Of a stretch of DNA of 54,479 bases, positions 24,867 to 46,587 are shown piece by piece. The position numbers were made by a program, and so were the translations under genes. Location of the stretch: the IMG/VR virus record IMGVR_UViG_3300027782_000111, positions 1 through 54,479 of that record. One strand, given 5' to 3'. Positions within the stretch are counted from its first letter, which is position 1. Each line of letters opens with the position of its first letter. This stretch comes from a virus (Duplodnaviria; Caudoviricetes). The notes under the pieces are model-generated. The model saw only the letters and a list, made by a program, of their open reading frames with translations. It ran no database searches and was not told where the DNA came from.

Positions 24867-26156
24867 TTAAGCTGTGTATGTTCCACTACCCGTAGTCCAC
24901 TTAATAATTGTATTAGATCCACTAGTTGTTATAGTTGGAGAACCTGTTGTAGTACCTGAGTAATTAGATGTAGGTACACTTAATATAACAACACCACTAC
25001 CGCCAGCACCTGCTGGACCTGCAGCAAATGGAGCAACTTGTCCACCGCCACCACCACCACCACCTAAATTAGCAGTGCCTGGTGTAGCAGGAGTAGTATT
25101 ATTTGATCCAGCACCTCCACCTCCAGCACCTCCTGATCCTGCACCTGATCCACCTGATGGATAACCACCACCTCCTCCACCGCCACCACCTGCGTATGTT
25201 GCTGGTGTACCCGTAATTGAAGAAGCTGTACCTGCACCACCTGTTGCTCCTGAACCTGCACCTGTAGCTCCACCACCACCGCCACCTATAGCAACTGGGT
25301 TATTAGGCCCTTGTCCTACAGCGCCTGCATTACCTTGACCTGGTGTTCCAGAGCCTGCTACGGTATTAGCAGTTCTTCCACCACCTCCACCACCTGAACC
25401 ACCTGATAAACCAACATCAAAAGGGGATCCTCCATCACTACCACCGCCTCCACCACCTATAGCAGTTGTAGCACCTGGAAATGTAGAATTTGAACCATTA
25501 GCTCCTGTGCCTGCAGTGATAGCACCGCCTGCACCTACAACAGCAGTATATATAGTGCCACCAGTTAAAGTAGCAGTGCCAGTAATATAACCACCCGCTC
25601 CACCGCCTCCAGCACCTATAGCTCCACTACCTATACCACCCGAGGCACCACCAGCCACTACTAAATAAGAAGCTGAATAGGTGCTTGGAACATATGGAGG
25701 ATTACCCCCATAAACGTTGCTTGAAGCAAGCCAACCTTGTGTTGAATCTATATAAGTAAAGGTAATACCAGATCTATTTGTTGATATTGCTTGTGCCGCA
25801 GCACTACTACCTATTTTTGCTCCATTACCATTTACAGTTATATTATTAGTTGCACTTGTTCCAGCATAGTCAACAATAACTACAAACTGGCCACGAGTAG
25901 GTGAGCTTGGTAATGTTACTGTAAATGCTGCACTTGTTGTATTACAAAAATAACCACCGTATGCTACTGCAGTAAATCCACTTGTTTGTGGCGTTGTGTT
26001 CCAGTTTATTTGTCCTGGTAATGCATTACCTGTTGTAGCAGAAGTTATTACAGTACCAGTTGAAGCTGGTAAAGTTAGTGTAGTACTTCCAGCAACACTA
26101 GGTGCTTGGAATGTAACTTGACCGCTTGTATCTCCACCTATAACAAAAGAAGCCAT
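24867..26156 (-). CDS. glycine-rich tail/adhesin protein
   Basis: GDTSG.VT..AP N-terminus; NTTSAAFTVTLP...DYAGT.ATNNITV...YIDSTQGW domain; polyglycine domain. Confidence 0.72.
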   Translation of the reverse strand: MASFVIGGDTSGQVTFQAPSVAGSTTLTLPASTGTVITSATTGNALPGQINWNTTPQTSGFTAVAYGGYFCNTTSAAFTVTLPSSPTRGQFVVIVDYAGTSATNNITVNGNGAKIGSSAAAQAISTNRSGITFTYIDSTQGWLASSNVYGGNPPYVPSTYSASYLVVAGGASGGIGSGAIGAGGGGAGGYITGTATLTGGTIYTAVVGAGGAITAGTGANGSNSTFPGATTAIGGGGGGSDGGSPFDVGLSGGSGGGGGGRTANTVAGSGTPGQGNAGAVGQGPNNPVAIGGGGGGATGAGSGATGGAGTASSITGTPATYAGGGGGGGGGYPSGGSGAGSGGAGGGGAGSNNTTPATPGTANLGGGGGGGGQVAPFAAGPAGAGGSGVVILSVPTSNYSGTTTGSPTITTSGSNTIIKWTTGSGTYTA

Positions 26157-27448
26157 TATGCAGTGTAAGTACCAGAACCACTGGTGTATTTAATTATTGT
26201 ATTAGCACCTGATGTGGTTATAGTAGGAGAACCTGTTGTAGTACCAGAGTAATTTGCAGTTGGAACTGATAGGATAACTACGCCAGATCCACCAGCACCT
26301 CCATTAAACACTCCACCCGAATATCCACCCCCACCTGCACCGCCACCAGTGTTAACTGTTCCTGATGATCCAACATATGAAGGCGCACTTCCTCCAGTTC
26401 CTCCTCCACCAGTTCCACCAGCTCCACCAGTAGTTGTATAAACACTGTATGCTCCGCCACCACCACCACCTGCGTAAGTAGCAGGAGTTCCTGTAATTGA
26501 AGAAGCTGTACCTGCACCACCAGCTCCTGGAACACCAGGTGCCCCAGCTACACCAACTGCACTACTTCCTCCACCACCACCACCAGAATATGTTACGGCA
26601 GATAGACCAGCTCCACCTGCACTTCCTTGACCTGGAGTTCCTGATCCACCAGGAGAAGCTCCTGAGTCACTAGCAGAACCACCACCACCTGAACCTCCAT
26701 TTGCACCAATAGCTGTTGAGGCACCTGGAGTATATCCTACAGATCTTCCTCCTCCAACTGCAGTAGTTACTCCTGTAAATGAAGAATCTGTTCCATTAGT
26801 TTGCCCACTACTAGGTCTTCCTGTTCCTCCAGAACCGCCTCCGCCTACTACAGCAGTATAAATAGTACCTATATTTAAAGATGTAGTGCCTGTAACTAAA
26901 CCTCCAGCGCCACCACCACCAGCAAGATCTGCACCAGCACCTCCGCCACCAGCTACTAATAAATAAGAGGCAGTATATGTTTGAGGTAATGGAGAAGTTG
27001 TAGAATAAACATCAGCGTAAGCAAGCCATCCTTGAGTAGCATCTACATAAACTAAATTGATAGCTTCTCTATTTGTAGATATTGTTGCTGAAGTTGTAGT
27101 TCCTTGAATCTTGTTTCCGTTGCCAGATACTGTAATATTGTTTGTAGCTGCGGTCCCTGCATAATCAAGAATAGAAATCGTGCTACCTGCTGTAGGACTT
27201 GCTGGCAGTGTTACAGTTAAAGCACCAGATGTTGTATTCATCGGATACCCTGTAAATGCGACAGCTGGGTTAACGCTTGCTGTTTGAACTGTTGTCCAAT
27301 TAATTGTGTTTGGTATACCTGATGTAGATGCAGTTGTAATAATAGTTCCTGTTAATGCAGGAAATGTAATAGTATTAGTACCAGCAACAGCTGGAACAGC
27401 TAAGGTTATAGAACCTGAGGTATCTCCTGAAACAACGATTGAACTCAC
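26156..27448 (-). CDS. glycine-rich tail/adhesin protein
   Basis: Same architecture as 24867..26156; GTG start. Confidence 0.72.
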   Translation of the reverse strand: MSSIVVSGDTSGSITLAVPAVAGTNTITFPALTGTIITTASTSGIPNTINWTTVQTASVNPAVAFTGYPMNTTSGALTVTLPASPTAGSTISILDYAGTAATNNITVSGNGNKIQGTTTSATISTNREAINLVYVDATQGWLAYADVYSTTSPLPQTYTASYLLVAGGGGAGADLAGGGGAGGLVTGTTSLNIGTIYTAVVGGGGSGGTGRPSSGQTNGTDSSFTGVTTAVGGGRSVGYTPGASTAIGANGGSGGGGSASDSGASPGGSGTPGQGSAGGAGLSAVTYSGGGGGGSSAVGVAGAPGVPGAGGAGTASSITGTPATYAGGGGGGAYSVYTTTGGAGGTGGGGTGGSAPSYVGSSGTVNTGGGAGGGGYSGGVFNGGAGGSGVVILSVPTANYSGTTTGSPTITTSGANTIIKYTSGSGTYTA

Positions 27449-27457
27449 TTTATATTC

Positions 27458-28012
27458 CTAATTTGTAAAATTAAACCAACCTGTTACTATGTATTTTTCT
27501 TCTGTATTAGATGTTATACCACGATGAGTATGTGTCCAATCAGCAGGCCATATAAGTGTTAAACCTTTTCTTGGTTTAACTTTTAATTCTTGATAATAAA
27601 ACTCTGTTTCTCCACCATCATCAACATCATTTAAGTAAGTCATAAATACTAGATGTCTTGATCCTACTAGTTCTTGTTTTCCAGTTCTTTCAGCGTGCCA
27701 CTGATGAAATCCTTGGCTTGGTAAATAATGCTGAATATTTATTCTTTCAACCAAGCTAAATGATTCATATTTATTACAAAAACTATATTGTTCTATATAT
27801 TTGTTTAATGTTTGTTGTAGTTGCAGATTATACCTATTAGATAAATCTACACTTTCTAAATGCAAATCTGTAGAATCTTTTATATTCTTGTCTACCTCAC
27901 CAAATCCTACTTTACCTAGATTTTTATCTGGACTATTTTTAAAATATTCTATGATATCGTCACAAATAGAAAGATCATCTAAATAATATTGCCCTATAAA
28001 TGTTTCTTTCAT
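27458..28012 (-). CDS. 2OG-Fe(II) oxygenase (prolyl 4-hydroxylase-like)
   Basis: WHAE...RHLVFMTYLNDVDDGGETEF...WP..WTHTHRG...KYIVTGW; start ATG 28012 by TAATG coupling. Confidence 0.88.
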   Translation of the reverse strand: MKETFIGQYYLDDLSICDDIIEYFKNSPDKNLGKVGFGEVDKNIKDSTDLHLESVDLSNRYNLQLQQTLNKYIEQYSFCNKYESFSLVERINIQHYLPSQGFHQWHAERTGKQELVGSRHLVFMTYLNDVDDGGETEFYYQELKVKPRKGLTLIWPADWTHTHRGITSNTEEKYIVTGWFNFTN

Positions 28013-29313
28013 TATGCTGTATAAGTTCCTGATCCAGTCCATTTAATCCAAGTATTAGACCCATTAGTACCTGTTGTTGCAGGTCCTGTATAAGTGCCTG
28101 GATATGAAGGTGTTGCTACAGAAATAATTACTACTCCAGCTCCACCAATTCCAGCCGTGTTAGTATAGTTATATGAAGCTCCACCGCCTCCTCCTCCAGT
28201 AGCTGCTACTCCTGCTGTTGGGGCTGGGTTTCCTGGTCCAGTTCCATTACCACCTGAAACTCCTGGAGTACCTGGCCCACCTAAACCATATGGAACACCT
28301 CCACGCTGGTCACGACCTCCACCACCACCACCACCATATATAGTGGAAGTGCCTGTAATAGAATTAGCAGTGCCTGGTCCACCATTACTTGCAGAGCCTG
28401 TACCACCAGATCCACCCCCACCACCACCGCCATCGGTAGTTCCTGGTCCAATACCTGTAATGCCTGCATATCCTTGTCCTGGAGTTCCTGCCCCACCAGC
28501 AGCGGGTGTTCCTGTATCTTGTGCTCCACCTCCGCCACCAGAGCCTCCAGATCTTCCAGCAACATTATTACCAGATCCACCACCACCTCCACCAGTCGCC
28601 CCTATAGATACTCCTGTTCCAACTATAGATGATCCACCTCCGTCAGAACCTCCAGCGGCAGGAGTTACGGCTCCACCACTACCTACGGTAATTGTATAGA
28701 CTTGTCCTTTAGTAAGGCCTGATGTTGCAGCTAAATATCCACCAGCACCGCCTCCACCACCAGCGTTACCTGGACCACCACCACCACCACCGCCTGCTAA
28801 AACTAAATATGTAACAGGAATAGTTTGAACAACAGTAGATGTAGTTAAGAATCCGTTGGATGCAATCCATCCTTGAGTTGAGTCTAAGTAAGTAAATGTT
28901 ACTGATTCTCTGCTTGTATTTAGTGTAGCATTAACCGATAAACCATTCATCTTGTTACCATTAAGAGATACTGTTATATTATTTGTAGCCCATGTGCCTG
29001 CATAGTCAGCTAAAAGAATTTGATCACCAGCTGCGGGTGAGGCTGGAAGGGTAACGGTAAAGGCAGCAGATGTAGTATTGCAAGGATAAGCATTGCCTGA
29101 TACAGCAGTAAATCCTGTAGATTGAACTGACTGCCAACTTAAGCCACCAACAGCAGCCCAAGCAGTACCATTATAAACTTCAAAAGAAGCAGTGGTTGTA
29201 TTAAACCCAGATTGACCAGTTCTAGGACTTGCAGGACGACCTGCTGTAGTCCAGTTAGGTAAACTAGCTGATCCGTTAGAACCTATTGCTGATAAATTGA
29301 CCGCATTAGTCAT
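28012..29313 (-). CDS. glycine-rich tail/adhesin protein
   Basis: WTTAGRP N-domain + NTTSAAFTVTLP domain + polyglycine domain; GGAG RBS. Confidence 0.72.
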   Translation of the reverse strand: MTNAVNLSAIGSNGSASLPNWTTAGRPASPRTGQSGFNTTTASFEVYNGTAWAAVGGLSWQSVQSTGFTAVSGNAYPCNTTSAAFTVTLPASPAAGDQILLADYAGTWATNNITVSLNGNKMNGLSVNATLNTSRESVTFTYLDSTQGWIASNGFLTTSTVVQTIPVTYLVLAGGGGGGGPGNAGGGGGAGGYLAATSGLTKGQVYTITVGSGGAVTPAAGGSDGGGSSIVGTGVSIGATGGGGGGSGNNVAGRSGGSGGGGGAQDTGTPAAGGAGTPGQGYAGITGIGPGTTDGGGGGGGSGGTGSASNGGPGTANSITGTSTIYGGGGGGGRDQRGGVPYGLGGPGTPGVSGGNGTGPGNPAPTAGVAATGGGGGGASYNYTNTAGIGGAGVVIISVATPSYPGTYTGPATTGTNGSNTWIKWTGSGTYTA

Positions 29314-37939: not shown

Positions 37940-38416
37940 TTAAACAGCTGCGCTAAATGGTGTAGCTACAGTGCCAGAGCCGATAAGACCGCCGCCAGTA
38001 ATAACAAAGATACCTGAAGCAACGTCTTGTAATCGAACAAATGAACCTGCAACGCCACCTGTAGTTGTACCATTCATAGTAATAGTGTCAGAAGCTGGAA
38101 GAGTACCAAATGGAGTACCTGTAGTACCTGCAACATTTAATGTACCGCTAATTACATCTGTTGCGTTAGCAACTTGAATTTTGTAACTATTAGATGTAAC
38201 TGTTGTTGTAATCAAAAATGTATATACAGAATTTGTACCTGTAGCTGCTGGAAGAGTAGCTGTAATACCAGCTGCACGACTTAAGCCAATAATTTGACCA
38301 TTGTAGTCTGCTGATGTAACTGCTAGTGTTGATGCTGTAACTGTTGAATTAACGCCCGTACCTGTGATGAAACCGTTGGTTGACGTGACTGGGCCCGAAA
38401 AGGTTGTATTAGCCAT
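37940..38416 (-). CDS. virion structural (head fibre/decoration) protein
   Basis: MANTTFSGPV.S.NGF...TLPAATG...ATPFS; GGAG RBS. Confidence 0.65.
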   Translation of the reverse strand: MANTTFSGPVTSTNGFITGTGVNSTVTASTLAVTSADYNGQIIGLSRAAGITATLPAATGTNSVYTFLITTTVTSNSYKIQVANATDVISGTLNVAGTTGTPFGTLPASDTITMNGTTTGGVAGSFVRLQDVASGIFVITGGGLIGSGTVATPFSAAV

Positions 38417-38421
38417 TTGAA

Positions 38422-38500
38422 TTTCTCCATATAGAGTTAAGTTTATTAGCCTTATATGCGTCTGCCGGGACAGTCTAATAAACCGGATATACCCGGATAT
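38422..38500 (-). ncRNA. candidate structured cis-regulatory leader RNA
   Basis: 9-bp helix GUUUAUUAG/CUAAUAAAC, inner hairpin CUGU-CCCG-GCAG, crossing pairings CCGGG/CCCGG and CAUAUA/UAUAUG (the latter abuts the RBS). Confidence 0.4.
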
Positions 38501-38534
38501 GGCAATAATACTACATTTTATATATAAAGCAAGT

Positions 38535-38556
38535 AAAAAAGGGGCCGAAGCCCCTT
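38535..38556 (-). terminator. intrinsic terminator after pqqA
   Basis: GGGGC-TTCG-GCCCC followed by TTTTTT on the minus strand (cUUCGg tetraloop). Confidence 0.9.
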
Positions 38557-38575
38557 AATTTAAAGCAAAGTACTA

Positions 38576-38653
38576 TTACTTATTCATTACGTACATAGTT
38601 ACTTCAAAGCCAAATCTCATTTCAGTTGCTGCTGGTTTAGTCCATGCTTTCAT
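38576..38653 (-). CDS. pqqA: pyrroloquinoline quinone precursor peptide PqqA
   Basis: Manual translation MKAWTKPAATEMRFGFEVTMYVMNK*; W-T-K-P...R-F-G-F-E-V-T-M-Y with the E-x3-Y core of PqqA; AGGAG RBS at 38661-38665, 7 nt upstream. Confidence 0.95.
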   Translation of the reverse strand: MKAWTKPAATEMRFGFEVTMYVMNK

Positions 38654-38738
38654 ATTATTTCTCCTATAATTTATACACACGGTGTGTATAACCATATTAT
38701 TAACCGTACGCTTTATCGTACGCATCAAGAAAACCATG

Positions 38739-38768
38739 AAAAAAGGACCTGTGTTTTAAGCAGGTCCC
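38739..38768 (-). terminator. intrinsic terminator after the major capsid gene
   Basis: GGACCTG-cttaaaaca-CAGGTCC then TTTTTT on the minus strand, ~25 nt after the capsid stop. Confidence 0.85.
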
Positions 38769-38792
38769 TTAGTAGTACGTAGCCAGTTGCTA

Positions 38793-39707
38793 TTAAGCGC
38801 CTGGTGAACCCCACATACCGAGAGGATCTGACCAACCAAATGAATAACGCTCACGAGCCTTGTAACGAACGTTACCAGTATCAAAGTCACCATCCATAGA
38901 AGTAGATAACGGAGTACGCACAAAGTGTTTCATGCCGTTAGGTACATCAGTTGTTAAGAAGTAAGCATCAGGATCTGTTAAGAAGTGGTTAATTGCGTAA
39001 CCTTCTGGAATTGAACCATTATTCTTAATAGCATTGATGTCATTGTCAGCTGTAGAAACACGAAGTTCAGTTTCGAGCAAGCGAGTTGCAACGAATTGAT
39101 TACCTGGTGGAACTACTAACTTACGTGGTTGAGCAGCAATTAATAGGCCGCGCTCATCTGTCCATGCAGCGATTTGAATAACAGCGTTTTCTAGTGCTGT
39201 TTCGTTCAAGTCAGTTGCTGTAGATTGAGTGTTGCTGTTAGTGCCACCTGAAACAAGAGGATGAGCTGTGTTAAATAATGAAACACCATCACCACCGTTG
39301 TAAGAACCAGAAGTGTTGAAGCCATTATTAAGAACTGCAGCAGCCTTAACTTGTTTTGTGTATGCCATAGCGCGAGCTAAAGCCTTTGTGTAACGTGCTG
39401 ATAATGTATCATACAAGTTATCTTCTACAGCTTCTTCAGTTAAGCTGAAGCCAAGAGCGATAGTTTGATGATTGTATCGAGCTGTCCAAGCTTCTTGAGC
39501 ATTGTCATAAGCGATGGCTGTGCCTTCGTTTTTAACTGGTGCTGCTGAGAAACCTGAAAGTTTTGTTTCTTCTTCGAATGAACGTTCTGAAGTTTCTGTT
39601 TCATATACTTCTTTATGTTCTTCGCCGTAACGTTTATATTCTAAACCAAATAGCGCGTTTAGTCCTGGTAAGAGCTCTTTTAGGAGCTGTGCACGTGAAA
39701 TAGCCAT
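38793..39707 (-). CDS. major capsid protein
   Basis: MAISRAQLLKELLPGLNALFGLEY...SERSFEEE...DGDFDTGNVRYKARERYSFG.SDP, a well-known podovirus MCP signature; strong RBS; followed by a terminator. Confidence 0.9.
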   Translation of the reverse strand: MAISRAQLLKELLPGLNALFGLEYKRYGEEHKEVYETETSERSFEEETKLSGFSAAPVKNEGTAIAYDNAQEAWTARYNHQTIALGFSLTEEAVEDNLYDTLSARYTKALARAMAYTKQVKAAAVLNNGFNTSGSYNGGDGVSLFNTAHPLVSGGTNSNTQSTATDLNETALENAVIQIAAWTDERGLLIAAQPRKLVVPPGNQFVATRLLETELRVSTADNDINAIKNNGSIPEGYAINHFLTDPDAYFLTTDVPNGMKHFVRTPLSTSMDGDFDTGNVRYKARERYSFGWSDPLGMWGSPGA

Positions 39708-42504: not shown

Positions 42505-45036
42505 TTACTCCTCTGTTGGTTGGGGTGTTTCCTCTTGTTGTGGTTGTTGCATCATTTGTTGCATCATTTGCATTTCTTTATTCATACTATGGTCTTTATC
42601 TTTCATGTCGCTAGTATGATCTTGTGAGCTTTCAGTTTTTAATAAATCTAAACCTAACTCAACACCACGAGCATGTTGTGTAGCTTCTATTTGTTGTTGA
42701 TCAAGCATAGCTTTTTGACCTAGTTTAGCACCTTCAATTCTTTCTTGAGAGTCAATCTTTTCTTTATCAAGAATTAATCGTGCTTTATCTAATTCAATAT
42801 CGGCTTGAGTTTTTTGTGCTTTAATTTGAACTTCTTGTTGTTTAATTTGAAGTTCTTGTTGTTGCATTTGAATTAACGGATCTTGAGCTTGTTGTTGCGC
42901 TTGTTGTTGAGCCACTTCTTTTTGGTTCAATTGCAATAATTGTTCCGCAGCTTGAGCAGTCAATTTAGATAACTCTACTTCTACTGATTGTGGAAGTTCA
43001 TCATCAGGTGTTGGTAATGATGCACCTAATTGTTTTTCAATTTGTTGTCTATATGCAAACGCTACGTGTTCATTAATGTGAGCCATAGCTGCCGCTTGTA
43101 ATTGTTGAGCCATCGGGTTTTGACCTATTAACTGAGCAATCTTCGGATCTTGAATAGCGGACATATGTACTTTAATATGTGCTTCATGGTCTTGGTATAA
43201 GAACGCTTTAACTGGTTTACCATTAAGTATAGCCATATTTTCTGATACCGGATCTTTAGGCTTTTGATCATCCGCTGTAGGTATGAGTTTACCAATGTTC
43301 TTAACCCCTAATACTTCAAGCATCTGTTTATTAAGTTCTGGTAAATCATAAATTTGTGGATTTTGTTGTGCCATTTGCATAACTGCTTGATACTGCACAA
43401 CTTTTTGAGACATTGTAGCTGCGTTAGGATCTGATACAGGTATAACATCACAGCAATCATAATCAGATTGTTTAGCACGTCTATCACCTACTTCTGGTTC
43501 ATATGAATATTCTTCAGGTGTGTAATCTTTAATGATGCCAGCTAATAACTTAAATTCTTGTTTCATCGCATAGTAAATACGCGCTTGAACTGCTGACATT
43601 ACTTTTAATGTACGTTCTAGAATTGCTAATGTTGTACCTACGGGTGAGTTAGCACTCATATCAGATACTTTCATATCTGCAGCTGATGCAAATCTTCTAC
43701 CTTCTTCAACAATCTGATTCATTAACTGATTAAGAACTTGTGAAGGTTCTTTATACGGCAACGGTAAGATGTTATCGCGGATGGCACCTGATGGTACATC
43801 TACGTCTCTCCATTCACCTGGAGCAATCGGTGTATCATCACCTTTGATACGAAGTCCTCTTGACTTCATACCGCCTGGTAAGTTCGATAGAGTACCTGCG
43901 TCTACAAGTTGACGTAAGATCATAGTACCTGATTTTGCGAAAGCACCTATCAAATGAATTAAGCCAAAGCAATAAAAGCCAAAGCCTGGAATGTATCCAT
44001 AATGTACGAAATGTTGTCGTTTAGTTTTTAATTTATCATCTGGCTGCCAGTTACGACGAATAGCTAAAATATCTCCTGTACCTTGTTCAATCGTTACAAC
44101 GTAAGGTAGTGCTATACCATCTTCATCATCACCATTTTCTAAATCTAAGTTGACATGCATTTCTAAGATTTTAAATCTGTCATCTTCTGATGAGTTGAAT
44201 CCCATCTTCTCTGCAATTTTCTTTTCAGCTTCGTCCGCTTCGTGAGATGGTTCACCTAAATCTATATCTCTATAGAACTCAGCTACTTGTAATTTACGAA
44301 TCTCATTTTTAGTTTTACGCATGACGTGTGTTACACGTTCAGCTGTTTCTAAGTTTGATGCACCATAAGGCACAACAATATCTTCAGCCGTAACATACAT
44401 GGATACTTGACGATCAAGGGAAGGATCAAAGTAAACTTTCTTGAACGCGTTACCAGCTAACCCTAGTCCCCATAACATTCTTTCATGTTCTGGACGATAC
44501 TCGGGCATCTTCTCTGTTAACTGATAGTTCATATCTTCTTTAACACGAAGAGCTGCATCTACTTTTTCTGGAGTTTGTTTACCTATGATTTGTGTTTTGA
44601 CTGGACCTGCAGCTGGGAAAGTTTCCATCATTGTTTCTGCTTGGAACTTAACAAGTGCTTCAGTCATAAGCGGATGGTACACATTACATGCACCTGGCCA
44701 TGGTTCTGTTCTATCTTCTACTTTAAGACCTAATAACTCTAGACCTTCAACATATGTATTTAACCAATCTTTTCTAGACTCAATGTCAGTTCTATACTCA
44801 CCCATCAAATCGCCAGACAATTCAGTTAATTGTTTCTCATCCATGTCCTCTGCTAAGTTAGCATTAAATTCTTCATTTTCTTTTTTATCTTTGCCTGGCA
44901 CAATGGTAATCTCCATGCTGCCATCATCTAATGTAACTGAATCTGGATTTTCAATCTCAATACTCATATCGGCTTGAGCTTTTGCTAAATCTTCAATACC
45001 TTGAGGCGTTTGACTTACACTTTTATCTATTGCCAT
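42505..45036 (-). CDS. portal protein
   Basis: 843 aa after TerL; PWPGACNVYHP, GNAFKKVY, PGFGFY..GLIH, QLVDAGTLSNLPGG, Gln-rich coiled-coil barrel (P22-like portal). Confidence 0.88.
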   Translation of the reverse strand: MAIDKSVSQTPQGIEDLAKAQADMSIEIENPDSVTLDDGSMEITIVPGKDKKENEEFNANLAEDMDEKQLTELSGDLMGEYRTDIESRKDWLNTYVEGLELLGLKVEDRTEPWPGACNVYHPLMTEALVKFQAETMMETFPAAGPVKTQIIGKQTPEKVDAALRVKEDMNYQLTEKMPEYRPEHERMLWGLGLAGNAFKKVYFDPSLDRQVSMYVTAEDIVVPYGASNLETAERVTHVMRKTKNEIRKLQVAEFYRDIDLGEPSHEADEAEKKIAEKMGFNSSEDDRFKILEMHVNLDLENGDDEDGIALPYVVTIEQGTGDILAIRRNWQPDDKLKTKRQHFVHYGYIPGFGFYCFGLIHLIGAFAKSGTMILRQLVDAGTLSNLPGGMKSRGLRIKGDDTPIAPGEWRDVDVPSGAIRDNILPLPYKEPSQVLNQLMNQIVEEGRRFASAADMKVSDMSANSPVGTTLAILERTLKVMSAVQARIYYAMKQEFKLLAGIIKDYTPEEYSYEPEVGDRRAKQSDYDCCDVIPVSDPNAATMSQKVVQYQAVMQMAQQNPQIYDLPELNKQMLEVLGVKNIGKLIPTADDQKPKDPVSENMAILNGKPVKAFLYQDHEAHIKVHMSAIQDPKIAQLIGQNPMAQQLQAAAMAHINEHVAFAYRQQIEKQLGASLPTPDDELPQSVEVELSKLTAQAAEQLLQLNQKEVAQQQAQQQAQDPLIQMQQQELQIKQQEVQIKAQKTQADIELDKARLILDKEKIDSQERIEGAKLGQKAMLDQQQIEATQHARGVELGLDLLKTESSQDHTSDMKDKDHSMNKEMQMMQQMMQQPQQEETPQPTEE

Positions 45037-45045
45037 AATTTATCC

Positions 45046-46587
45046 TTAAACTAAATACAACTTATTCCTAGAACTTCTAAAGCCTGGTATATCTTCAGGT
45101 TCATCATTAGGTAATCTAATGAACCCACCTTGTCTAAATCTCATTAACGCCATAGTGGTACTATCCACTTGGTCATCGTTAGCACCTGATGGGAAGTCAT
45201 TACACTCCTCAATCAGTTCGTGTGCCCAACGTTTATCTGGAGCCCACACTATACCAGATCTGAATAGATCTGCCACGGAGTTAACGCGGCTAATCTTATC
45301 TTGACCTTTTCCAGGTGTAAATTCCCCTAGCGGAATACCCATCCTCCTCATTTCCTGATATAGAGCGGCTCCGTTAGATTTCTTTTCTACTATGAGTGCG
45401 TCGGGTTCCCATTCTTTGTACTCACGAAGTACTAACTCTTTTAACTCAGGGAACTCTAGTCTTTCCTTAATAGCATTTAATAGTATTATATTATAATTAT
45501 TGGTCTCTTCGTTAAAAAAGACACCCCACGTAGTTAACGAATTATAATCGGCTCTCGTATTGGCTTCTTGTGCAGCATCAAGAGACATAATCGTAAACTC
45601 ACAACTTGGTGGCACTTCGTTATCCCATATCTTCCACCACTCACGTTTTATGAGTGCACCTTCTTCTGAGACTGGGTTCTGTAAGTATTGAGCATTCCAG
45701 TACCGAACATCTAGTGCTGCTTTCTTTGCCTGTAATTCTTCAAGTGGCCAAAACTCAGGCCAAAGACTTTCTTCTTCGCCTGCTTTGTTTTCAATAATCG
45801 CTGGAAATTCAACAACTTCCCAATCGTCAACCCCGTCTTGCTTTATCATTTGGTTAACTATTTGGCCGGTCAAGTCTAGCTTAGACCACCTAGTCATTAC
45901 TACAATGATCGCACCGCCAGGCATAAGACGTTGTATTGGACCAGACTGAAACCACTCCCAAGCAGGCAGAAAAACATCCGCTCGTCCCAATTTGGCGTCT
46001 TGCTCGGAGTGTGGATCATCAATGATAAACAAATCAGCCCCGCGACCAGCGAGGGCACCGCCAACACCAATAGCAAAATATTCTCCATTATGATTAGTTC
46101 CCCATCTACTTGCAGACTTACTATCTGCTTGTAGTTCTACATCAGGGAATACGTCTTTATAAGCATCGCTACCAACCAAGTTACGAACACGACGACCAAA
46201 GTTAACAGCAAGGTCAGCGGTATGAGACGCCATAATAATTTTTTTATGAGGATACTTTCCCAAAAACCAAGCAGGTGCGAGATATGAGATAAGCTCAGAC
46301 TTCCCGTGTCGTGGCGCAATATTAACAATAACTCTTTTCTTTTCGCCGTTGGCAATAGCCTCAAATATTTTTGCAAGTCTTCTATGATGATTCCCTACTT
46401 TATATCCTGGATACACATGATCAATAAATTCTAAAAATGTTCCCTGTCTTTTTTCAATAGCTTGAGTTTTTTCTAACTCATTTAACTCGGCAAGTAACTG
46501 TTGTTGTTCATGCGGAGGTAAAACACCTATATTAGCTAACGCTGTATCTAAATCAGCATCAGTGATGCCTGCTATATCTATGGGCAT
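45046..46587 (-). CDS. terL: terminase large subunit
   Basis: Walker A NIAPRHGKS, GRGADLFIIDDP (Walker B), VMTRW, nuclease motifs SLD, VEKK.NG, FP.G.NDD.VDS. Confidence 0.95.
   Translation of the reverse strand: MPIDIAGITDADLDTALANIGVLPPHEQQQLLAELNELEKTQAIEKRQGTFLEFIDHVYPGYKVGNHHRRLAKIFEAIANGEKKRVIVNIAPRHGKSELISYLAPAWFLGKYPHKKIIMASHTADLAVNFGRRVRNLVGSDAYKDVFPDVELQADSKSASRWGTNHNGEYFAIGVGGALAGRGADLFIIDDPHSEQDAKLGRADVFLPAWEWFQSGPIQRLMPGGAIIVVMTRWSKLDLTGQIVNQMIKQDGVDDWEVVEFPAIIENKAGEEESLWPEFWPLEELQAKKAALDVRYWNAQYLQNPVSEEGALIKREWWKIWDNEVPPSCEFTIMSLDAAQEANTRADYNSLTTWGVFFNEETNNYNIILLNAIKERLEFPELKELVLREYKEWEPDALIVEKKSNGAALYQEMRRMGIPLGEFTPGKGQDKISRVNSVADLFRSGIVWAPDKRWAHELIEECNDFPSGANDDQVDSTTMALMRFRQGGFIRLPNDEPEDIPGFRSSRNKLYLV

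Follow-up and report, generated by a model that had tools for sequence, protein, structure and literature searches.

The contig of a freshwater tailed phage carries a genuine pqqA gene, the gene for the peptide precursor of the cofactor PQQ, as an accessory cassette between its major head protein gene and the next structural gene, and there is good reason to think that the encoded peptide supplies precursor to the PqqB-E enzymes of the infected host. The window, by which we mean the whole stretch of DNA that was analysed, is a linear IMG/VR viral contig of 54,479 bases with a CheckV completeness of 86%. In the model that we favor, the phage copy would keep up or raise the supply of consumable PQQ precursor to host PqqB-E during infection, and PQQ-dependent methanol dehydrogenase would then go on supplying energy for phage production.

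The pqqA gene and its phage record

The gene occupies positions 38576..38653 of the minus strand (25 codons plus TAA), reading from an ATG at 38653-38651 to a stop codon that ends at 38576, and it encodes MKAWTKPAATEMRFGFEVTMYVMNK. The preliminary description had read this 78-nt ORF, preceded by an AGGAG ribosome-binding site, as PqqA and had proposed a comparison with the PqqA HMM, which fully bears the reading out. The peptide scores 42.6 bits against the Pfam PqqA model PF08042 (curated cut-off 21.1; E 5.5e-11) and 40 bits against the NCBIfam equivalog TIGR02107 (cut-off 20; E 2.3e-10), in both cases about twice the curated cut-off, and the Shine-Dalgarno AGGAG (38661..38665, minus strand) lies 7 nt before the ATG. 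A six-frame PqqA scan of the whole record returned a single match (E 2.4e-11), and the same scan of 14 control genomes returned none. The sequence also has the residues by which a PqqA is known: Glu17 and Tyr21 stand in the E-x3-Y arrangement (E17-V-T-M-Y21), and W4 and P7 form the N-terminal W-x-x-P. This minus-strand ORF is a genuine phage-borne pqqA and not a chance match. It had escaped the ORF track, as was pointed out at the outset, in that only a 53-aa in-frame extension of it (38576..38737) is listed there; this extension is unconserved, the open frames at the PqqA match measuring 31, 39 and 43 aa in G043, G055 and G039, respectively, versus 59 in the window.

The Glu and Tyr of the PqqA E-x3-Y are the residues that become PQQ; they are cross-linked by PqqE together with PqqD, and the peptide is consumed in the process, one per PQQ. 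The W-x-x-P leader is the part of PqqA that is recognised by PqqD. Because the core of the phage peptide is identical to that of host peptides (see below), its conversion to PQQ by PqqD/PqqE and the later enzymes is likely.

The DNA is that of a genuine phage, in which pqqA lies behind the major capsid gene, as originally described, and ahead of the next structural gene. Directly upstream lies the major head protein gene (38793..39707, minus strand; phrog_371, E 1.8e-21), which at the nucleotide level has ~64% identity with its counterparts in Pelagibacter phages HTVC023P and HTVC027P, and on the other side lies a structural gene (MANTTFSGPV...; 37940..38416, minus strand), the conserved right-hand neighbor of the insertion site. 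The genes downstream of pqqA match tail and virion families, and the same record holds the portal gene (42505-45036) and the large terminase gene (45046-46587). Viral genes thus flank pqqA on both sides, the location expected of an auxiliary metabolic gene. At 24867-29313 of the minus strand the same record also has three paralogous genes side by side, each of 429-433 aa and each matching phrog_2295 as well as tail-fibre/tail-spike families; they represent a tandem triplication of a putative receptor-binding protein.

Model searches of the whole record for PqqE, PqqB, PqqC and PqqD found none, the PqqC negative being a weak one given that this model was silent in all control genomes. In agreement with the preliminary description, pqqA is the only pqq gene of the record and is not accompanied by pqqBCDE. 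The missing pqqBCDE does not argue against membership in the PqqA family, because the extra copies of the host are orphans too; it does mean, however, that the peptide can act only through host enzymes.

The insertion site and its flanking elements

The distribution of the cassette was examined among the best 80 capsid relatives (84-98% identity) of at least 600 in IMG/VR. Sixty-eight of these 80 have at least 400 nt after the capsid gene and were counted; seven carry a same-strand pqqA within 600 nt after the capsid gene and the other 61 do not. Between the capsid stop and the gene that follows there are 375-383 nt in three carriers (the window, L262 and L250), as compared with mostly ~95-190 nt where the cassette is missing, and an alignment of the locus (alignment A1) reveals clean insert boundaries: non-carriers have the capsid stop, one UUCG-type terminator and the strongly conserved leader of the next gene, to which the window adds a block made up of the hairpin at 38770-38739, a leader of ~85 nt and pqqA. 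The right-hand gap was measured as the plain distance to the next ORF; tblastn with the downstream 158-aa protein found it in 3 of the 80 relatives, probably because this protein is of low complexity and variable.

At the level of whole records, a PqqA match occurs in 4 of 18 close capsid relatives (the record of the window among them), and the remaining 14, five of which are 99-100% complete, are without any pqqA, indicating that this capsid lineage does not need the gene. In a capsid tree of the window and 64 of the 80 relatives, those whose capsid match is nearly complete and is followed by 700 nt or more (16 were excluded), six of eight carriers, the window included, fall into one clade with 99% SH-aLRT support; presence of pqqA requires three changes on this tree versus a mean of 7.6 after shuffling, and none of 500 shuffles came as low. 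The pqqA cassette is an accessory, clade-linked unit in this capsid lineage. The presence of such a unit in some and its absence from other collinear relatives is one mark of a moron, and in this respect the proposal that the cassette is moron-like, which was to be judged by whether relatives carry or lack it at this locus, is upheld.

The intergenic site after the capsid gene (L252-L328; equivalent to 38417-38792 of the window) is an insertion hotspot where several relatives have other ORFs instead of pqqA, the N-termini of which, judged by eye, resemble GIY-YIG (GIYKIIN..KFYVGS) or other homing endonucleases.

The cassette had been placed between a terminator of the capsid gene and a terminator of its own. 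Two hairpins with T-runs are indeed there: a terminator-like one between the capsid stop and the cassette (38739..38770, minus strand; fold -13.7 kcal/mol, z about -3.3), and an intrinsic terminator, GGGGCUUCGGCCCC followed by a U-run, after pqqA (38535..38556, minus strand; -13.2 kcal/mol, z -3.0). Their roles, however, are probably the reverse of those assigned, because the single UUCG-type hairpin that follows the capsid stop in relatives without pqqA aligns in A1 with 38535-38556 of the window and not with 38739-38768, the hairpin at 38739-38770 being absent from these relatives. The hairpin at 38535-38556 would then probably be the ancestral capsid terminator or its positional equivalent, and the hairpin adjoining the capsid gene (38739-38770) would probably be part of the ~225-nt insert. 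In carriers L039, L042 and L061 the UUCG hairpin precedes the cassette instead, so the insertion point is not uniform and the terminator assignment not certain.

Within the insert, an upstream motif, TTCATGGTTTT (38730..38740, minus strand), is common to many phage pqqA cassettes. It is followed by a weak putative promoter element, TTAATAAT (38696..38703, minus strand), which comparison places at the site of a -10-like CATAAT/TATAAT in related cassettes; a scan of the minus strand for sigma-70-like consensus promoters found none. Directly before the Shine-Dalgarno, folding and comparison with viral copies point to a leader hairpin, TTATACACAC-CGT-GTGTGTATAA (38671..38691, minus strand), that aligns with nine other viral copies with six pairs in common, two of them showing compensatory changes, and that may act as a stem at the 5' end of the mRNA or as a palindromic operator. 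Freshwater-2 RNA (RF02980) was considered as the pqqA leader and rejected, since it scored 24.7 bits against a gathering threshold of 49.9; across 51 pqqA-bearing viral records none of its matches rose above threshold, the weak ones being scattered and mostly away from pqqA.

pqqA in other phages and in the Methylophilaceae

The window is by no means the only phage DNA with this gene. A tblastn search with the peptide against 50,697 GenBank phage records matched 12, and intact pqqA is found in ten: nine records from isolated Methylophilales/Methylophilaceae phages (Venkman, P19250A, MEP301, MEP401, MEP402 and four Melnitz records) and the uncultured MW202481. All six ORFs extracted from these ten records pass the Pfam PqqA model. 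In none of them is pqqA annotated; five have no feature at all under the match, and in Melnitz EXVC044M and MW202481 a 'hypothetical protein' is annotated on the strand opposite to it. Nine further named phages in the NCBI taxonomy (HIM624-A, phiMB624-A, MEP431-434, Venkman EXVC038S, MG-MTP1 and RSA-MFP1) were outside the matches and perhaps outside the searched collection. CAKLQF020000010.1, labelled Acinetobacter phage MD-2021a, was rejected as a phage pqqA: it has ppk, pqqB and pqqC beside pqqA, which is a bacterial chromosome arrangement, so that the sequence is bacterial DNA and the phage label looks wrong. A second match under the same name, CAKLQH020000055.1, was likewise left out of the count.

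The pqqA genes of the isolates and of MW202481 resemble that of the window in being intact ORFs of 23-24 aa, 77-100% identical to its residues 4-25. They differ in position, lying antisense among early/recombination genes, beside a tRNA or at a module junction, and in the type of phage that carries them; the isolates include siphovirus, podovirus and myovirus morphotypes.

In IMG/VR, at least 120 contigs match a degenerate DNA pattern for EMRFGFEVTMY, and all 120 loci listed have an intact ORF of 23-25 aa starting from ATG, in 108 distinct DNA versions. The Trp and Pro at core positions 1 and 4, which the search pattern left free, are invariant in all 108. The pN/pS across the viral copies is 0.13, a value that is biased low because the pattern fixed codons 8-18. 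From the Trp to the last Lys, the core of the window peptide is identical to that of 21 of the 120 copies listed, and 94 of the 120 end in MYVMNK. Phage pqqA is thus real and widespread in such phages. Some viral PqqA peptides (L093, L063, L094, L107, L119 and L122 of IMG/VR) end in ...MYIANK, ...MYIANR or ...MYIATK instead; the ...MYIANR form also occurs in bacterial MAGs, whose labels go no further than Burkholderiales or Betaproteobacteria and do not name Methylophilaceae. In L093 such a copy follows a capsid gene of the window type (81% identity), suggestive of independent acquisitions, each fitted to a different host.

The genomic settings of these 120 listed loci, judged by neighboring ORFs of at least 90 aa, are diverse: pqqA is antisense to both neighbors in 46, co-oriented with both in 30, at a convergent junction in 21, and at a contig end or divergent in 23. 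The 46 antisense copies must therefore have promoters of their own. Among 55 co-oriented upstream neighbors, 14 match phrog_371, the capsid family of the window, and three other major head families (phrog_138, phrog_267 and phrog_283) have two members each, possibly overlapping; a capsid gene of the window type precedes pqqA in 18 of the 120 loci.

It could be argued that pqqA is carried without any selected phage function, as host DNA taken up at a recombination-prone site behind the capsid gene. The endonuclease-like insertions that relatives have at the same intergenic site (again judged by eye) would fit such an origin, and so would the lack of pqqA in most relatives. However, a passenger would hardly be expected to stay intact in 120 out of 120 listed copies with 108 distinct DNA versions, nor to recur in unrelated phage types, and the grouping of six of eight carriers in a well-supported capsid clade argues for retention over time. 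We consider this explanation quite improbable, and less likely than a supply of precursor.

The peptide also points to the host. The same EMRFGFEVTMY pattern, applied to bacterial contigs with one genome per species, found at least 120 stretches, 80 of which were listed with titles and counted by hand: 63 name Methylophilaceae or Methylophilales, 16 bear higher-rank labels only, and one is an Acidovorax MAG. The preliminary description had recognised the ...EMRFGFEVTMYVMNK form as that of Methylophilaceae, and it is indeed typical of them, with 51 of 64 copies from Methylophilaceae-named records ending in MYVMNK. From the Trp to the final Lys, the window peptide is identical to 29 of the 126 bacterial copies fetched, mostly from Methylophilaceae. 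Judging by this peptide similarity, which is the sole basis of the assignment, the host of the phage is most likely a member of the Methylophilaceae.

Four such host genomes have 3, 4, 7 and 5 PqqA matches, each with one PqqE above cut-off, and in one of them (1.3 Mb; titled Ca. Methylopumilus universalis) the nearest of three PqqA matches is ~121 kb from pqqE. These copy numbers agree with the 3-12 pqqA copies and single pqqBCDE set given for Methylophilaceae by Beck et al. 2014 (PMC4109929). Like these orphan chromosomal copies, the window gene stands alone, away from pqqBCDE, and has the identical core seen in the 29 copies above. It differs from them in belonging to a phage structural operon and in starting with an MKA extension instead of M.

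Regulatory sequence seems to be shared as well. An inverted repeat, TCATTA-N8-TAATGA, is found 90-130 nt upstream of pqqA in both viral and bacterial loci, at a similar distance to a -10-like box in both; with up to one mismatch it precedes 16 of 117 bacterial copies (shuffled mean 0.6) and 11 of 116 viral ones (shuffled mean 3.0). Possibly it is bound by a host regulator and moved together with the gene. The window has no full repeat but only the right half-site. Another motif, [AC]ATG[AG]TTTT, occurs in 52 of 116 viral upstream regions, mostly at a distance of 70-99 nt from the ATG; the opposite strand has it in 3 of 116. Viral and host copies are alike in having a strong hairpin after the stop, 85 of 118 viral and 111 of 120 host copies folding with z < -2 in the 70 nt that follow it. 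Leader hairpins are enriched in the viral copies: in the 40 nt before the Shine-Dalgarno, z falls below -2 in 47 of 116 viral and 28 of 117 host copies, as compared with 12 of 116 and 22 of 117, respectively, in a control segment further upstream.

The closeness of phage and host genes raises the question whether pqqA could be an attachment or recombination target, its homology to host pqqA being used for integration and not for expression. Exact matches to the bacterial loci fetched (120 of at least 120) reach at most 32 nt, the longest being within the coding core, as might be wanted of such a target. Yet the best host copy has 91% nucleotide identity over 69 nt, with the changes at synonymous sites and homology ending at the ORF; the ORF is complete, with its own Shine-Dalgarno and flanking hairpins, it sits inside the structural module, and a search of the record for a tyrosine integrase found none. 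Integration targeting is in our opinion highly improbable, far behind a role in precursor supply.

Known systems, proposed function and transcripts at the locus

That phage pqqA might already have been noted in lake viromes had been anticipated, and it is in print. A viral PqqA together with a methanol dehydrogenase is described on the T4-like Lake Baikal population VP_266, with a predicted Methylophilaceae host (Coutinho et al. 2020, Microbiome 8:163, PMC7678222). VP_266 is like the window in having pqqA on a viral contig with a predicted host in this family, and it is read there as an auxiliary metabolic gene for methanol oxidation; it is T4-like and has the methanol dehydrogenase, whereas the window is ~54 kb with an HTVC023P/HTVC027P-like capsid, a separation that is by description only. 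The concept of a viral pqqA is thus already published for one metagenomic viral population, which limits the novelty of our finding. A 2026 paper counts viral pqqA, pqqE and pqqD as phosphorus-cycling genes, and in the Melnitz paper PQQ appears solely as an ingredient of the OM43 medium (1 nM). A literature search for pqqA in OM43 phage found no paper, and one for viral pqqA found nothing further of relevance among the papers listed, a RiPP-mining paper mentioning the bacterial PqqA family. What is new here is the carrier lineage, the picture of the insertion site, the clade-linked presence and the common upstream motif.

In lakes and in the ocean, the Methylophilaceae (OM43, LD28 and their relatives) account for a major share of the consumption of methanol and other C1 compounds. 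Very high levels of pqqA transcript are ascribed to this family; a literature search on these levels found no report. If it is true that phages routinely top up the PQQ precursor, methanol oxidation would be sustained or raised in infected cells and viruses would be tied to C1 carbon flux. A gene of 23-25 codons that annotation pipelines miss would also make a cheap host-prediction marker for uncultured phage contigs.

Cyanophage psbA is the textbook auxiliary metabolic gene, and phage pqqA is like it in that one rapidly consumed part of the energy-harvesting machinery of the host would be carried, the host partners supplying the rest. They differ in that the product of psbA is a reaction-centre protein of 350 aa, for which experiments have demonstrated both expression and benefit, whereas pqqA encodes a 25-aa cofactor precursor whose role is read from sequence. 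It is quite conceivable, though we would stop just short of favoring it, that pqqA is to Methylophilaceae phages what psbA is to cyanophages: a repeatedly acquired, host-range-marking micro-cassette that lands with preference behind highly expressed genes such as that of the capsid and, in this freshwater capsid lineage, defines a methylotroph-shifted sub-clade. Such a micro-cassette would comprise a half-palindrome shared with host pqqA promoters, the leader hairpin, ~23 codons and a terminator, and, being skipped by gene callers, it would have gone unannotated in essentially all deposited records.

Carriage of the substrate alone, with no enzymes, can perceivably be read in another way. PqqA might flood PqqD/PqqE and so disturb PQQ synthesis or radical-SAM capacity, or the PQQ might serve other quinoproteins or redox protection; the upstream motif and leader hairpin present in many cassettes would permit strong, independent expression. 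On the other hand, the host enzymes should treat a peptide whose core is identical to host copies like any other substrate. In a decoy one would expect the Glu or the Tyr to have been lost, and every copy has both, albeit in a search whose pattern demanded these two residues. Finally, the hosts multiply pqqA themselves, which suggests that more precursor is useful and not harmful. Manipulation or another use of PQQ is therefore unlikely, and like the other two alternatives it is less likely than precursor supply. The preferred model does assume a need for new synthesis within a short infection, PQQ being a recycled cofactor. Its predictions of expression, processing to PQQ and benefit to the phage are directly testable, because isolated phage-host pairs carrying pqqA already exist.

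Some information on transcripts comes from Logan contigs of lake metatranscriptomes, in which four runs from four studies (six RNA runs contain part of the stretch) all cover the capsid gene. The pqqA bins have some depth in all four as well, but run X17 has contigs with loose ends that leave the window at 38575, which shows that some of them at least derive from other genomes with pqqA; the RNA contigs on pqqA may come from host or other phage copies and are not assignable to the window. Bins 38668-38795 have next to no RNA contig cover, and none of the contigs listed runs from the capsid gene into pqqA. Expression of this copy and the read-through from the capsid gene that had been suggested are predictions.

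The leader of gene 37940-38416, which adjoins the pqqA cassette on its downstream side, contains a conserved structured RNA candidate in its own right (window 38420-38505, minus strand), within which zero-mismatch RNA contigs from two studies stop, at 38480. Its invariant hairpin, GAC(A/T)GTCCCGGC(T/A)GAC, is enclosed by a long stem (GGTTTATTAG ... CTAAT..AAACY), and a covarying hairpin, CCGGG..CCCGG or CCAGG..CCTGG, precedes the candidate. In an alignment of 16 sequences (the window, L039, L250, L254, L256, L262, L265, L276, L277, L283, L286, L307, L309, L312, L322 and L324), pairing extends to 97.8% of cells and compensatory changes are seen in 11 of 17 pairs, a result that none of 500 shuffles reached; slid controls pair at 29-50%. 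Rfam assigns it to no family, the nearest weak match, GcvB at 18.8 bits, barely touching the upstream edge. This element may be a late-gene leader or a protein-binding operator.
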